Below, piece after piece: positions 22,393 to 27,732 of a stretch of 64,000 bases of DNA. Both the position numbers and the translations under genes were made by a program. Origin of the DNA: Promethearchaeota archaeon (GTDB lineage: Archaea > Asgardarchaeota > Lokiarchaeia > Sigyniarchaeales > SOKP01); NCBI GenBank assembly GCA_030599585.1, contig JAUVNS010000002.1, positions 96,001 through 160,000 of the forward strand. Reading direction: 5' to 3'. Within the stretch, counting starts at the first letter, position 1; each line of letters begins with the position of its first letter. The notes under the pieces are model-generated. The model had not been told where the DNA came from and searched no databases. It was given only the letters and a program-made list of their open reading frames with translations.

Positions 22393-23916
22393 TTAAGTCG
22401 CAGCAACTCTCTTAGGAAATTTAGATTGCGCCTTAAGATTTTCCTGTAATAATTTATTTACCAACTTAAATCTTTTATCTCGAAAATCTTTTTTATCCCA
22501 TAAATTATTTAATTCGTGAGGGTCGGTTTTACGATCGTAAATATCGCCAAAATTATCTAGTCCTTCGTAAACAGTTAATTTGTAATCTTCAGTAACTAAA
22601 TGTCTTATCCGGGCCTCAAGAGGACCGACTTCTTCGTCGTTCTCAATTAAAACACAATCGCGTATTTTCTTTGTTGGATTTTCTAAGACTTGAGACATAT
22701 CAAAACCTTGCATATAAGGTGGGTGGTGTCGCTCTTTTACATTTAAAAGGTTAAGAATCGTTTTAGGAAGATCGATAGTACTAACTAAAGATTGAGACAC
22801 TCCGGACTTTGTTAGTCCTGGTACTTTCCAAATTAAAGGGATGTGACACGGTCCGACGAAAGGACATGGTCCTTTGAATAATAGCCCATGATCGCCCATT
22901 AAATCGCCGTGATCACTGGTAAAAATCACCATTGTATTATCTGAATACCCTAAATTTTCTAATGAGGCTAGTATTTTACCTACGCTATAATCTACGTACG
23001 ATATTGCAGCGTAAGTTAAAGCGGTAATTTTGCGAACCTCTTCTTCTGTTGATTCTCGTAAAAACGCTTTTTTAAAGGGCGGATTTTTTAAATGATATCC
23101 TAAATATTTATGGTGATATAAATTCTTTGCATCTTGAAAACTTGCGGGGAGTTCTATATCTTCGGGTTTATACGCGTCTTGAAATCTCTTTGGGGGATAT
23201 AGAGGATAATGTGGATCTGGAAAAGAACAATGCAAATAAAAAGGTTTTTCTCCATATTCACCCTTGGCATGTCTTTCGAGGAAAGCAATTGTTCGTTCTT
23301 GAACATAGGTAGTATTGTATAATTCTTCTGGTATTCCATCGCAATATAAACTGAAAAGGTTGTCGTAATTCTGAACTCTTTTTTTCATTTCATCTGCAAT
23401 TTTAGGGGCTCTTTCTTCCAACCACTCTGTATAATGACCAGCGCACACAGTACCATTTCCTGAAATCATTTCCACTTCGTCGTAACCATAATAGGGGAGG
23501 GGGAAATTCTTTCCTACAGGATCGTTTTTACCTTTATCTACCGCCCAACTAAATAAACTCTCAGCAGACTTAGTTTTCTGCTTAAACGGACCTAGCCAAA
23601 ATTGATGGTGTATTTTTCCAATAGCCGCAGTATGCCAACCTCTTTTTTGAAGCGTTTTTGTAATGGTAGGAGTATCTTCTGATAAATTAATTCCGTTGCT
23701 TCTAACGCCATGCACATTGGGATATAATCCAGTGAGTAGTGTTGCTCTGTTAGGCATGCAAATTGGATTAGTACAATAATAATTAGTGAATCTCACGCCT
23801 TCACTTGCCAACCTATCGAGGTTTGGAGTTTTTAGAATAGGGTTTCCTGCACAGCCTAAATGATCGGCCCGTTGAGCGTCAGTAATAATAAATATTACAT
23901 TCATTTTTTCTTTCAT
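22393..23916 (-). CDS. Formylglycine-dependent sulfatase (paralog of 19813-21342)
   Basis: ITDAQR, CMPNRATLLTG, GKIH, FPDPH and SDHGD. Confidence 0.92.
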   Translation of the reverse strand: MKEKMNVIFIITDAQRADHLGCAGNPILKTPNLDRLASEGVRFTNYYCTNPICMPNRATLLTGLYPNVHGVRSNGINLSEDTPTITKTLQKRGWHTAAIGKIHHQFWLGPFKQKTKSAESLFSWAVDKGKNDPVGKNFPLPYYGYDEVEMISGNGTVCAGHYTEWLEERAPKIADEMKKRVQNYDNLFSLYCDGIPEELYNTTYVQERTIAFLERHAKGEYGEKPFYLHCSFPDPHYPLYPPKRFQDAYKPEDIELPASFQDAKNLYHHKYLGYHLKNPPFKKAFLRESTEEEVRKITALTYAAISYVDYSVGKILASLENLGYSDNTMVIFTSDHGDLMGDHGLLFKGPCPFVGPCHIPLIWKVPGLTKSGVSQSLVSTIDLPKTILNLLNVKERHHPPYMQGFDMSQVLENPTKKIRDCVLIENDEEVGPLEARIRHLVTEDYKLTVYEGLDNFGDIYDRKTDPHELNNLWDKKDFRDKRFKLVNKLLQENLKAQSKFPKRVAAT

Positions 23917-24036
23917 AATTATAAAAAATCTATTCTTGCTTGTTGGTTAAAATTAAAGTCTATTCTATTATTTCATTTTTGATGTTAGAAAATATAAAGT
24001 TTCACGTAGATATTAATACTCCCACCTATTACTTTT

Positions 24037-24051
24037 GGCAAGTTTTATAAG
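24037..24051 (+). promoter_or_regulatory. Putative BRE/TATA promoter of the leu leader transcript
   Basis: GGCAAGTTTTATAAG (purine-rich element then TTTATAA) about 50 nt upstream of the leader ATG. Confidence 0.45.
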
Positions 24052-24100
24052 TGTCCTATAATTCACCTTTTAATAATAATTTTATAGGGATTAAAAAGTA

Positions 24101-24202
24101 ATGCTGATTCAAAAAACGACTAGAATTGAATCTAGGAATTCATTTGCGCAATTTTATCCCTTTTTATTGTTACTGTTAAATCTTCTCTTATTATTACTAT
24201 AA
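24101..24202 (+). CDS. Leucine-rich leader peptide (uORF) of the leu operon, 33 aa
   Basis: MLIQKTTRIESRNSFAQFYPFLLLLLNLLLLLL*. Eleven of the last 12 codons are Leu (TTA, TTG, CTG, CTT, CTC, CTA). AGGGA lies 10 nt upstream. The stop is 91 nt before the leuA ATG. Confidence 0.8.
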   Translation: MLIQKTTRIESRNSFAQFYPFLLLLLNLLLLLL

Positions 24203-24256
24203 TTACCCCTCTCTTCCATTAAAAGGAAGGAGATTTATATCTCTTTGGGGGGTTTT
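24178..24256 (+). promoter_or_regulatory. Putative attenuator RNA element with alternative pairings
   Basis: Outer stem ACCCCTC 24205-24211 / GGGGGGT 24247-24253 encloses hairpins CTTCC/GGAAG and GAGAT/ATCTC, followed by a short U tract. Alternative pairing: AAATCTTCT 24178-24186 with AGGAGATTT 24228-24236. Confidence 0.6.
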
Positions 24257-24293
24257 GTATAAAACTTAATAAATTAAATAGGTGCAAAGAAAA

Positions 24294-25913
24294 ATGGAAA
24301 AAAACAACAATGTAAGTGTTTCGCAAATAATGGAGGAAATTCGAGACTCACTTAGTCTTCCAGATAAAGCATATTTTTTCGACACAACACTCCGTGATGG
24401 TGAACAAACCCCCGGAATAAGTTTTACTCTCAAAGAAAAAATATCTATAGCGCAAACATTAAATGACATGAAAATTGATGTAATTGAAGCGGGATTTCCA
24501 GTTACTTCTAAAGGTGATTTTGATGCGTGTAGGTCAATATCTAAATTAGGTTTAGACTCTGAAGTAATGGGATTAGCGAGGATGGCAAAACTTGATATAG
24601 ATAAAGTTATTGAAGCAGATATGGATAGCATTCACCTTTTTATTGCTACTTCAGACCTACATCTTAAATCCAAACTTCAAATGAGCCGCGATGAAGTAAT
24701 AGAGCAAATTAATAAATATATTTCTTATGCCAAAGAGCATTACTCGACAATATTATTCTCAGCTGAAGATGCAACTCGTTCCGATTTGGATTTCTTAATT
24801 AAAGCAAATTTAATTGCAATTGAGAGTGGAGCAACGAGAATTAACATTCCTGATACTGTAGGTACCATCTCACCAAAAGCGTTCGGATATATGGTAAATA
24901 ATGTATACAAGGCAATTCCAAGTGACATTAGAATAGCAGTACACTGTCATAACGATTTTGGACTCGCCGTTGCGAACACTATAGCAGGATTCGAAAATGG
25001 AGCCTCGGAAGCACAAACTACAATTATGGGCTTAGGGGAACGAGCTGGCAATGCTTCTTTTGAAGAAACAGCAATGTCACTTTATGCTCTGTATCAATTA
25101 CCAATGAATATCATTACGCAAAAGATCTTTCCCACTGCGAAACTTATCGAAAGTTATTGTGGGGGTAAGGTAAAGATAGGACGCCTCCAGCCTTTGATAG
25201 GACAAAACGCTTTTTCTCACGAAGCGGGTATTCACGCTCACGCTATGATTAAAAACGCTCGAACTTATGAACCTATCACGCCTCAGTTAATTGGAATAAG
25301 TAGATCTGACAGTGTAGTGGATATTCTTAAACATTCAATTAAATTTGGAAAACATAGTGGTGGACATGCGTTAAAAGCAAAATTAGGAGATCTTGGAATT
25401 AAGACGAATGATAAAGAATTCATTAAGATAATGAATCACATTAAAGATTTTGGAGACAAAGGACATGAAGTTTCTGAAGAAGATTTTTTAGCAATTGTTA
25501 AGGATGTTATGGGAGAAATACCCGAAGAAGAACAATATGTAATTCTTGAAGAATTAACAGTTTTGACGGGTTCTATAACCCCTACCTCAACTGTGCGTTT
25601 AAAAATTAGAAATGGAGACTTCATAGAAAAAATCGCTTCTTCAGTAGGAGTTGGTGCAGTAGATGCGTCAGTCAATGCTATTGTTAAATGTTTTAAACCA
25701 ATGAGTAATATTAAGTTATTGAACTTCCAAATTGATGCGATTACTGGAGGAACTGAAGCCTTAGCTCATGTGACCATCGAAATTTTAGACATTGAAAGTA
25801 AAATTATAGTTAAAACAAGTGCTACTCATGAAGATATTGTGATGTGCTCGGTTTTAGCTCTTGTAAAAGGTTTGAATCTTATAGTTAAGAAAAAAAGTGC
25901 TGAAATGGAATAA
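24294..25913 (+). CDS. leuA: 2-isopropylmalate synthase (LeuA/CimA family, with C-terminal regulatory domain)
   Basis: DTTLRDGEQTPG, HCHNDFG, GERAGN, HEAGIH and C-terminal G.GAVDA...AITGGTEA. ATG at 24294 has AGGTG 9 nt upstream. Confidence 0.88.
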   Translation: MEKNNNVSVSQIMEEIRDSLSLPDKAYFFDTTLRDGEQTPGISFTLKEKISIAQTLNDMKIDVIEAGFPVTSKGDFDACRSISKLGLDSEVMGLARMAKLDIDKVIEADMDSIHLFIATSDLHLKSKLQMSRDEVIEQINKYISYAKEHYSTILFSAEDATRSDLDFLIKANLIAIESGATRINIPDTVGTISPKAFGYMVNNVYKAIPSDIRIAVHCHNDFGLAVANTIAGFENGASEAQTTIMGLGERAGNASFEETAMSLYALYQLPMNIITQKIFPTAKLIESYCGGKVKIGRLQPLIGQNAFSHEAGIHAHAMIKNARTYEPITPQLIGISRSDSVVDILKHSIKFGKHSGGHALKAKLGDLGIKTNDKEFIKIMNHIKDFGDKGHEVSEEDFLAIVKDVMGEIPEEEQYVILEELTVLTGSITPTSTVRLKIRNGDFIEKIASSVGVGAVDASVNAIVKCFKPMSNIKLLNFQIDAITGGTEALAHVTIEILDIESKIIVKTSATHEDIVMCSVLALVKGLNLIVKKKSAEME

Positions 25914-25945: not shown

Positions 25946-27220
25946 ATGGGTTTAACAATTACCGAGAAAATTCTTAGAGATCATTGTCAGAATAAAAAAG
26001 CTGTTGCTGGTGATTTTATTATGGCCGAAATCGATAAATGTTTGGCCAACGATATTACTGCTACCATGGCCATAGAAGCATTTGAAAAAGTGGTAGAAGC
26101 TTCTAAAGCTGAAGTTTTTGACTCTTCTAAAATCATTTTGGTCCCTGACCATTTTACTCCAAATAAAGACGTGGCTTCTGCTACTCAGTGTAAAATCCTT
26201 AGAGATTTTGCTACCAACCATAATATTACTAACTATTTTGAGGTCGGAAGAGGAGGCATTGAGCATTGTCTTGTGCCAGAGCAAGGATTGGTGAAACCAG
26301 GAGAAGTTTTTATAGGGGCTGATTCACATACATGCACTTACGGCGCACTCGGGGCGTTTGCTACAGGTGTTGGATCTACAGATTTAGGGGTTGCAATGGC
26401 ATTAGGAAAATGTTGGCTTAAAATCCCCGAATCTATTAAGTTCATTTATTCTGGTAGATTAAATGAATGGGTTTCAGGAAAAGATTTGATACTGTATACA
26501 CTCGGAAAAATTGGCGTAGATGGAGCTACATACAAAGCTATGGAATTTATAGGTGATACGATAAAAAGTTTACCTATGGCAGATCGGTTTACTATGTGTA
26601 ATATGGCTATAGAAGCTGGCGGAAAAAATGGAATTATTGAACCCGATAAGATCACCACATCGTATTTAGATGCTCTTAAAATATCGAAGGATGGTTTCTA
26701 TAATAGTGATAAAGATGCTGAATATTGTGATGTTATAGATATTGAATGTGCTAATATAGAACCACAGGTTGCACTTCCTCATTTACCTGACAATGTGAAA
26801 TCCATTTCAGAAGTTCATAGTATGAAAATAGAATTAGATCAAGTAGTTATAGGATCGTGTACAAATGGTCGGCTTGCCGATCTAAGAAATGTAGCGAAAA
26901 TTCTTAAAAATCGAAAAATCGATAAAAAGCTAAGATGTATAATAATACCAGGAACGCAAAAGATATATCTAAAAGCGATGGAAAGAGGATATATTGAAAG
27001 TTTTATTAATGCCGGCGCAATTGTCTCAACCCCTACTTGCGGACCTTGTTTAGGTGGTCACATGGGCGTCTTAGCGGAAGGAGAGAAAGCTTTGTCAACA
27101 ACAAATAGAAACTTCCAAGGGAGAATGGGACACGTTAATAGTGAGGTTTTTTTATCCAACCCCGTAGTTGCAGCTGCTTCAGCGATAAAAGGGTATATAA
27201 CCTCCCCAGAATATTTATGA
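25946..27220 (+). CDS. leuC: 3-isopropylmalate dehydratase large subunit
   Basis: DSHTCTYGA, GSCTNGR, CGPCLGGHMG and STTNRNF.GRMG. Confidence 0.93.
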   Translation: MGLTITEKILRDHCQNKKAVAGDFIMAEIDKCLANDITATMAIEAFEKVVEASKAEVFDSSKIILVPDHFTPNKDVASATQCKILRDFATNHNITNYFEVGRGGIEHCLVPEQGLVKPGEVFIGADSHTCTYGALGAFATGVGSTDLGVAMALGKCWLKIPESIKFIYSGRLNEWVSGKDLILYTLGKIGVDGATYKAMEFIGDTIKSLPMADRFTMCNMAIEAGGKNGIIEPDKITTSYLDALKISKDGFYNSDKDAEYCDVIDIECANIEPQVALPHLPDNVKSISEVHSMKIELDQVVIGSCTNGRLADLRNVAKILKNRKIDKKLRCIIIPGTQKIYLKAMERGYIESFINAGAIVSTPTCGPCLGGHMGVLAEGEKALSTTNRNFQGRMGHVNSEVFLSNPVVAAASAIKGYITSPEYL

Positions 27221-27240: not shown

Positions 27241-27732
27241 ATGATTGGAAAAGCAATTAAATATAACCTAAAAAATATTAACACTGATCTAATAATTCCC
27301 GCTAGATATTTACTTAATTCAGATGAAAATTATTTAGCTCAGCACTGTATGGAGGATTTAGATCGCGATTTCGTTAAAAAAGTTAAAAAAGAAAATTATC
27401 AAATCTTGGTCGCTGATTCTAATTTTGGATGTGGTTCAAGTAGAGAACAGGCACCGACTGCGATTAAAGCTTCAGGAATTACATGTATCATCGCACCTTC
27501 TTTTGCAAGGATTTTTTTCAGAAATGCTATCAATATTGGCTTACCAATATTAGAATTTCCCGATATTGGCAACATAAAAACAGGTGATATTTTAAATATC
27601 CAATTTGAAAAGGGATTAATTAAGAATACATCTACTGCTGAAGAATTTCAAATCAAAAAGCAACCCAGCTTTTTACAACAAATAATTTCCGCTGGGGGTC
27701 TGATTAATTTTGCTCGAAAGCAAATAGAGTAA
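27241..27732 (+). CDS. leuD: 3-isopropylmalate dehydratase small subunit
   Basis: NINTDLIIPARYL, NFGCGSSREQA and SFARIFFRNAINIGLP. Confidence 0.93.
   Translation: MIGKAIKYNLKNINTDLIIPARYLLNSDENYLAQHCMEDLDRDFVKKVKKENYQILVADSNFGCGSSREQAPTAIKASGITCIIAPSFARIFFRNAINIGLPILEFPDIGNIKTGDILNIQFEKGLIKNTSTAEEFQIKKQPSFLQQIISAGGLINFARKQIE

Follow-up and report, generated by a model that had tools for sequence, protein, structure and literature searches.

Leader-peptide attenuation is a textbook bacterial mechanism, with the enterobacterial leuL, trpL, hisL, ilvL, thrL and pheL systems as its classical examples, and it needs an mRNA that is translated during or just after its synthesis. In E. coli, a ribosome that has stalled at the end of TnaC, the leader of the tna operon, blocks the access of Rho, and release of the ribosome at the stop codon allows termination. 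In archaea, termination by RNA polymerase depends on oligo-U and aCPSF1/FttA; Rho is, to our knowledge, lacking. A search of the full-text literature returned no published case of leader-peptide attenuation in Archaea, which agrees with an earlier reading of the DNA described here from its letters alone (the sequence-only reading), where ribosome-mediated attenuation was held to be not well established in this domain. Besides bacterial work and reviews, the search returned one Haloferax ribosome-profiling paper, which does list upstream open reading frames (uORFs), none of them an amino-acid attenuator. Here we analyzed a stretch of 64,000 nucleotides from a lokiarchaeal genome (the window), in which the 5' leader of a leuACD operon appears to encode a leucine gauge that is read by the ribosome, such that a stalled ribosome would block an 'off' fold or termination. 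From comparison of sequences and predicted folds, we assign this reading a probability of roughly 0.7.

The uORF occupies positions 24101–24202 of the + strand and comprises 33 codons and a TAA stop (24200–24202), with the translation MLIQKTTRIESRNSFAQFYPFLLLLLNLLLLLL; 91 nt lie between the stop and the leuA ATG at 24294. Codons 22–33 (24164–24199, + strand), the proposed sensing site, read TTA TTG TTA CTG TTA AAT CTT CTC TTA TTA TTA CTA, which places Leu in 11 of the final 12 codons, together with one Asn, and uses all six Leu codon types. The frame, its distance from leuA and its codon content are exactly as the sequence-only reading gave them, and its description of the frame as unannotated is consistent with our finding no copy of the exact peptide among ~15 billion predicted proteins. 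The host genome (4.85 Mb, 32.6% GC) has TTA as its commonest Leu codon, and a six-frame scan of the whole of it finds 11 Leu in this 12-codon window only, with 10 Leu in 5 windows and 9 Leu in 32. When 3087 intergenic ATG-started small ORFs (sORFs) were scored for a run of any single amino acid, the uORF ranked first (binomial p 6.7e-10).

The three genes that follow, all on the + strand, are leuA (24294–25913), encoding a 2-isopropylmalate synthase of 539 residues that scores 554.8 bits against NF002085 (cut-off 517) and aligns to residue 534; leuC (25946–27220), encoding the large subunit of 3-isopropylmalate dehydratase (TIGR02083, 654.5 bits; cut-off 610.65); and leuD (27241–27732), encoding the small subunit of the dehydratase (TIGR02087, 175.6 bits; cut-off 108.95). 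Against the leuD equivalog model TIGR02084, LeuD scores 207.9, under the cut-off of 245.85. Upstream of the leader lies a divergent arylsulfatase-like gene.

A TATA-like box, TTTTATAA (24043–24050, + strand), sits 51–58 nt 5' of the uORF ATG and is the predicted promoter. The block around it, GTTTTATAAGTGT, is common to the same-genus loci; other clades carry ATTTTTAAAA or GTTTTTAA at the same place, preceded by a purine-rich stretch, and a TTTWWAW motif occurs at −80 to −35 of the uORF start in 47 of the 56 related loci described below, most commonly at −52 to −59. Because this box is conserved about 55 nt before the uORF, transcription is predicted to start upstream of 24101, near 24070–24076, some 25–30 nt 5' of the uORF ATG. 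The predicted 5' UTR (24066–24100, + strand) contains the Shine-Dalgarno (SD)-like motif AGGGAU (24086–24091), 9 nt before the uORF ATG, a weak SD; the 16S rRNA ends in GGAUCACCUCCU. Both upstream elements had been picked out from the letters alone, as an SD-like AGGGA and a TATA-like element about 50 nt upstream, and both are there.

The 5' UTR also supplies the 5' strand of a predicted helix, which we have termed P1, in a duplex with positions 24147–24181 (+ strand). This 3' strand spans the codons that precede the Leu run and the first codons of the run itself, and its core, AUCCCU (24156–24161), pairs with the SD-like AGGGAU. Over the 56 loci the energy of the P1 duplex is lower than that of shuffled sequences, with a mean z of −2.7 and 68% of loci below −2. 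The strands themselves vary by clade, being AAAGGGAU/AUCCCUUU or ACAAUUCUA..GGGA/UCAUUAGAAUUGU in some and UUAACAAC/GUUGUUAA or ACUAAGGAAU/AUCCCUUAGU in others. A second helix, P2 (GAUUCAA/UUGAAUC; 24106–24132, + strand), lies within the uORF in minimum-free-energy folds, which are noisy on AU-rich RNA of this kind, and a counterpart of the GCUUCAA/UUGAAGC type can be made out by eye in other clades.

Immediately downstream of the uORF is a predicted hairpin, P3 (24205–24253, + strand), which folds as a three-way junction of −20.3 kcal/mol (z −2.2) with an outer stem of 24205–24211 and 24247–24253 and inner stems of 24213–24217/24225–24229 and 24230–24234/24239–24243. The 5' arm of P3 has an alternative, as it can pair with a segment 8–15 nt downstream into a small local hairpin, with a U/pyrimidine-rich tract 3' of it. 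Here the hairpin and its tail (24212–24246, + strand) read UCUUCC/GGAAGG (TCTTCC..GGAAGG in the DNA) and then AGATTTATAT. The element resembles a terminator or a pause site (1 site where 0.2 are expected), and in other clades the long form of P3 and this small hairpin compete. We found no conserved U-tract 3' of P3 in the leaders compared, and P3 is therefore not a terminator of the bacterial type. Between P3 and leuA runs an A-rich spacer of ~35–40 nt (24254–24293, + strand) that is mostly unpaired in the folds and contains the leuA SD, AGGUG (24280–24284). The AGGU(G) motif, which is complementary to the 16S 3' end CACCUCCU, is kept ~9–13 nt 5' of the leuA start; the SD and AUG of leuA fall about 25–40 nt past P3 in a region predicted to be open.

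To see how far this arrangement extends, leuA orthologues were collected from 40 relatives, 55 named MAG contigs, a phylum-wide sample and one closed genome (6.0 Mb) from the same order. Upstream DNA could be read at 56 related leuA loci, from at least 8 genera of Promethearchaeota/Lokiarchaeia, and every one of them has a Leu-run uORF, although the loci are kin, so that locus counts overstate independence, and the starts in relatives were assigned by homology. The contigs of these relatives carry the labels Promethearchaeota/Promethearchaeia, i.e. Lokiarchaeia; the 56 loci encode LeuA proteins that are 63–95% identical, comprise all same-family loci and most of those from the sister family, and the closed genome has the Leu leader as well. 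At leuA loci of six other Asgard families and of families f3 and f4, where LeuA is ≤57% identical, no Leu-run uORF was found by the criterion used, a result to be read as not found with this query and not as absence. The frame is open and started by ATG in 55 of the 56 relatives (by TTG in the other), is mostly 32–37 codons long, and stops 82–132 nt, mostly 87–104 nt, before leuA.

What is kept and what is free to change within the uORF argue for reading the run as codons. Between relatives, the first two thirds of the peptide are almost free to vary, while 3–7 Leu stand immediately 5' of the stop, sometimes with one other residue interposed, and close relatives swap synonymous Leu codons (e.g. 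CTT/CTA/TTA and CTA/CTG). Leu makes up 72% of the final 12 codons in frame 0 family-wide, as against 10% of codons in genes; the same DNA read in the +1 frame gives 43% Tyr and 14% stops, and in the +2 frame 38% Ile. Retention of the Leu-rich uORF in relatives had been set beforehand as a test that could refute the proposal, and the 56 loci, with their divergent N-termini and synonymous Leu changes, uphold it. The claim that the use of six Leu codon types sets the run apart from a plain TTA microsatellite holds for this genome but does not carry over to the relatives, in whose runs TTA accounts for 72% of Leu codons, versus 45% in genes. The variety of Leu codons is thus a trait of this genome and not of the family, and low complexity may contribute in some measure to the mostly-TTA run in relatives.

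Two further observations concern the surroundings of these loci. In several relatives (loci L043 and L046, at about 600–1200, and L015–L017), a small GTPase gene with a conserved C-terminal ...RTGLYQ.YG.G.AP... motif is the direct 5' neighbour of the leader, or of leuA itself, which suggests conserved synteny. In L009/L076 the Leu leader is parted from leuA by a stretch of N and what looks like a duplicated segment, probably a scaffolding artefact in that MAG.

The first paired base of P3 falls 0–6 nt past the uORF stop at all 56 loci, and family-wide it has a median span of 54 nt, a median energy of −20 kcal/mol and a mean z of −3.5; taken alone, its nascent 5' halves fold locally at −6 kcal/mol in the median (mean z −1.15), and its 3' halves have a mean z of −0.35. 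Using a covariance model built from one clade (a 10-sequence alignment), we fitted 39 leaders to the model, a procedure that favours its structure, and in this alignment 89.9% of P3 cells are paired, compared with 71.8% in shuffles and 53–63% when the partner is slid. Compensatory changes occur at 14 of the 15 P3 pairs, and cells changed on both sides number 105 where 36 are expected, a count reached by none of 500 shuffles. Plain MAFFT alignment with RNAalifold, on either 49 or 14 leaders, gave a consensus structure that was absent or nearly so, which we put down to failure of the alignment. Within P3, U-G pairs are frequent and C-A pairs rare, which marks it as a feature of the + strand RNA and not as a (protein-binding) DNA palindrome, and indicates that the region is transcribed in the direction of leuA. 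A promoter within P3 (TTTATAT, 24235–24241) was considered and rejected, as the motif is not kept in same-genus loci and the U-G pairs point to RNA. The leader covariance model, R1, has the leuA leader as its sole match in the host genome; weak extra matches in L043 and L046 lie inside the GTPase gene and are spurious. A search of Rfam (cmscan of 23900–24400, E up to 10) gave no match to the leader, only three chance ones.

The strongest argument that the Leu run is read as codons comes from other operons, where the repeated codon matches the pathway in each leader. On contig C26, an sORF of 36 codons ending EHHHLHYK (L087:1048–1158, − strand) stands 85 nt upstream of a 303-residue main ORF (L087:51–962, − strand), the C-terminal 200 residues of which are HisIE (NF002747, above cut-off), with hisG directly next. 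Orthologous hisIE genes in 14 genomes of several genera are preceded by a His-run uORF, with endings such as HLHHHQHHK, HHWLHHE or HHHHHHHH; the uORF stops 81–92 nt before the main ATG, a first hairpin that is not SD-like starts at its stop codon, and a second hairpin adjoins a GGGGG Shine-Dalgarno. On contig C40, an Ile-rich uORF ending ISILLIIIGII (L157:1775–1957, − strand) lies upstream of a cimA-like LeuA paralogue (L157:69–1706, − strand), and Ile-run uORFs precede this paralogue in ~20 genomes (e.g. with the ending IIIIGIII). The Ile stop is mostly 83–103 nt before the gene (68 nt in the host genome, where the assigned start is uncertain), and a stem, GAAAUUUUAAAC/GUUUAAAAUUUC, lies 3' of the uORF and encloses 25–30 U/C-rich nt. 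The His and Ile leaders share the anatomy of the Leu leader, with a stop 81–103 nt before the main start, and the codon of the run is that of the pathway every time.

A possible Arg leader was also seen upstream of argJ on contig C40 (C40:251456–252658, − strand; locus L158), where a TTG-started frame of 31 codons, ending NPRPARLRL, has three Arg codons near its end and is followed by a stem enclosing a U/C-rich tract. The sequence-only reading had proposed a scan for cognate uORFs before other pathways, and the scan thus yields His before hisIE–hisG, Ile before the cimA-like gene and, more weakly, Arg before argJ. No convincing leader was found before the four ilvB-like (TPP enzyme) genes of the host genome. 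A Trp-rich sORF on contig C27 proved to be a false positive that comes from reading the gene of a GGT-repeat (RGG) protein out of frame; this gene (L128:2226–3704, − strand) encodes 492 residues with a long N-terminal Gly/Arg/Phe repeat, the +1 frame of which mimics a Trp-rich sORF. In the host genome, which is estimated to be 100% complete, we found no gene of the chorismate-binding (TrpE) family. The HisIE proteins (L087:51–962, − strand, and orthologues L099–L108) carry an N-terminal extension of ~100–118 residues without an NCBIfam match, and in other relatives the hisIE open frame runs to ~400 residues, suggesting a different fusion.

The match between leader codon and pathway across the Leu, His and Ile cases also points to leucine, and not citramalate or homocitrate, as the product of leuACD. 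The sequence-only reading had reached the same assignment, and it gains from the score of LeuA above the 2-isopropylmalate synthase cut-off and from the existence of a separate cimA-like paralogue with an Ile leader of its own. Amino-acid biosynthesis is patchy within the genus; in a first search, a leuA orthologue was found in 7–8 of 24 same-genus genomes and hisIE in about half.

We can now propose how the leader may work. That its translation gauges charged tRNA-Leu is likely from the comparisons above. When leucine is plentiful, a ribosome would pass the Leu codons, terminate and depart, leaving the leader to take its default fold, with P1 closed and P3 formed, and leuACD expression would be low. 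When leucine is scarce, ribosomes would slow over the 11 Leu codons, and a ribosome held on the last of these, by the stop, would keep P1 open and cover the 5' arm of P3, the first paired base of which should be within reach of the footprint of a ribosome at the end of the run. With this arm covered, either the 'off' fold would be prevented or the termination machinery would be kept from the U/pyrimidine-rich tract inside P3, and RNA polymerase, or later ribosomes, would continue into leuA. The tract inside P3 is the candidate regulated site, on which the stalled ribosome would act as it does in the tna operon. This occlusion model fits two conserved facts of geometry, namely that the run abuts the stop and that the hairpin starts within ribosome reach of the stop. 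The output step, in which premature termination is relieved by occlusion as in TnaC or other simple occlusion attenuators, is our best guess and a tentative one, at somewhat less than even odds, and it is probably unlike the output of classical bacterial attenuators.

Several simpler forms of the switch fared poorly. Taken as a plain terminator, the small hairpin with its U-tract would give the wrong sign with a ribosome stalled early in the run. Sequestration of the leuA ribosome-binding site was rejected as the main mechanism, as a ribosome-sized mask on the stop or on the run gave only a weak difference. Hairpin 1 of the His leaders does not appear to act as an anti-antiterminator of hairpin 2, since masking hairpin 1 does not remove hairpin 2 from the minimum-free-energy fold. 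The proposal that stalling on Leu codons switches on leuACD therefore divides into a sensor, which the comparison with relatives and sister leaders supports, and a switch-on step, which draws on analogy and on the logic of biosynthetic operons; the sign of the switch is not derivable from sequence alone. In its strict sense of regulated termination, the word attenuator, which the sequence-only reading used of a candidate, goes further than our results, as we found no canonical terminator/antiterminator pair.

An unlikely but serious alternative keeps the Leu-codon stalling sensor and gives it a translational or post-transcriptional output instead of termination. The stalled ribosome might melt the pyrimidine-rich 5' arm of P3, so that the freed 3' arm (GGAAGGAG, GGGGGG), which is rich in purines and SD-like, could serve as a standby site, or more LeuA might result from altered shunting or re-initiation across the hairpin or from altered mRNA stability. 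The lack of a canonical terminator after P3 fits such an output, as does the resemblance of the 5' and 3' arms of P3 to an anti-SD and an SD, respectively, given the 16S 3' end CCUCCU. Accessibility of the SD–AUG region also rises slightly, from a P(unpaired) of 0.46 in the free leader to 0.59 with a ribosome on the run, yet this change is small and, in the comparison with a ribosome-sized mask, borderline (0.54 vs 0.59, p 0.04), and the leuA SD is predicted to be open in all states. A further point against such an output is that the first hairpin of the His leaders is not SD-like. While a stop 0–6 nt before a stable hairpin is the geometry of an sORF–hairpin shunt, a shunt predicts less downstream translation when uORF ribosomes stall.

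Two other explanations dispense with the sensor in its proposed form. The leader could be a structured non-coding RNA, such as a riboswitch or a T-box-like sensor of tRNA with the Leu codons as specifiers, in which the frame is untranslated. The ~230-nt leader is indeed highly structured throughout (P1, P2 and P3), and what looks like conservation of the peptide's N-terminus (LQ etc.) coincides with P2. Such an RNA, however, has no need of a stop right after the run, of in-frame synonymous Leu changes or of cognate runs of up to 8–11, nor of an ATG at a fixed position and a frame that is open at 56 of 56 loci in stop-rich, AT-rich DNA. The leader lacks the Stem I specifier loop and T-box antiterminator sequence of a T-box and matches neither the T-box nor any other family in Rfam, and we regard this explanation as very improbable. 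Still less credible is a small hydrophobic (membrane) peptide with a function of its own, or a chance ORF or TTA microsatellite. The peptide's tail is hydrophobic, and the genome is AT-rich with TTA as its commonest Leu codon, but this run is unique in the genome and its position is kept while the peptide diverges; the hydrophilic His runs and the Ile runs of the sister leaders, which match their operons, would be left unexplained.

Looking beyond leuACD, we lean slightly towards the view that Lokiarchaeia possess a regulon of such gauges, covering Leu at leuACD, His at hisIE–hisG, Ile at the cimA-like gene and probably more. The members would follow one archaeal-specific plan, in which a TATA box precedes a helix of the 5' UTR, the run of cognate codons ends at the stop, and a hairpin closes around a U/pyrimidine-rich tract. 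Their output would go through the archaeal, eukaryote-like termination machinery (oligo-U, aCPSF1/FttA) or through a shunt-like step of translation, and not through a bacterial terminator hairpin. If true, Archaea would gain their first case of leader-peptide attenuation, in the prokaryotes most closely related to eukaryotes, and functional coupling of transcription and translation in Lokiarchaeia would have direct evidence. With a conserved family of leaders one could test whether Asgard archaea use such coupling to regulate their genes, how a signal passes from a stalled ribosome to aCPSF1/FttA or to a polymerase of the archaeal, Pol II/III-like kind, and whether uORF-based control by amino acids is older than eukaryotes. 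The leaders may also be of practical use, as the amino acid whose codons stand at the 3' end of a leader predicts what an ambiguous LeuA, CimA or homocitrate-synthase paralogue makes, and their presence flags uncultured Asgard lineages that still make leucine, histidine or isoleucine.

Among the known systems, the leuA leader would work like leuL, hisL and ilvL, but in a new domain and with neither an intrinsic terminator before the gene nor an Rfam family match. As in leuL-type leaders, a short ORF, with its ATG and SD-like motif kept and a TATA-like box upstream, lies in the predicted 5' leader of an amino-acid operon; codons for the end product cluster near its 3' end (11 of 12 in the window and 72% family-wide, with His and Ile analogues); the RNA around the ORF is structured; and the leaders form a pathway-matched family. 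In P1, pairing involves the leader's own ribosome-binding region, resembling the reported sequestration of the trpL ribosome-binding site. Unlike leuL-type leaders, this one belongs to an archaeon, matches neither Leu_leader nor related Rfam families in sequence or structure, and has a run that abuts the stop, with one long covarying hairpin 0–6 nt beyond it. There is no GC-rich stem and U-run terminator between the uORF and leuA, where the sole small terminator-like hairpin with a T-rich tail is inside P3 and is not canonical family-wide. We found no demonstrable choice between 2:3 and 3:4 pairings; the 5' arm of P3 does have its local alternative, but folding with a mask gave no clear switch.

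The leuA leader also shares traits with systems that control translation. In ermCL, cat and cmlA, stalling of the ribosome within a short leader ORF opens the left arm of the adjacent hairpin, much as we propose for P3, but the hairpins of these systems sequester the downstream ribosome-binding site, whereas the leuA SD (24280–24284) and ATG (24294) are outside P3 and mostly unpaired. Like GCN4 and the arginine attenuator peptide, it places a uORF ahead of a gene that responds to amino acids, and like the CaMV 35S sORF–hairpin shunt it has a stable hairpin whose base lies a few nucleotides past a stop codon. These eukaryotic controls work through eIF2 levels and the scanning of 40S subunits, or through the nascent peptide, in contrast to the SD-led starts and cognate run seen here. 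TnaC differs from the leuA leader in that it senses free tryptophan through its nascent peptide and not through hungry codons, and in that its factor is Rho; a role for aCPSF1/FttA at the leuA leader is speculation. What the two would have in common is the place of action, with the regulatory ribosome at the very end of the leader ORF, beside the RNA site that termination needs.
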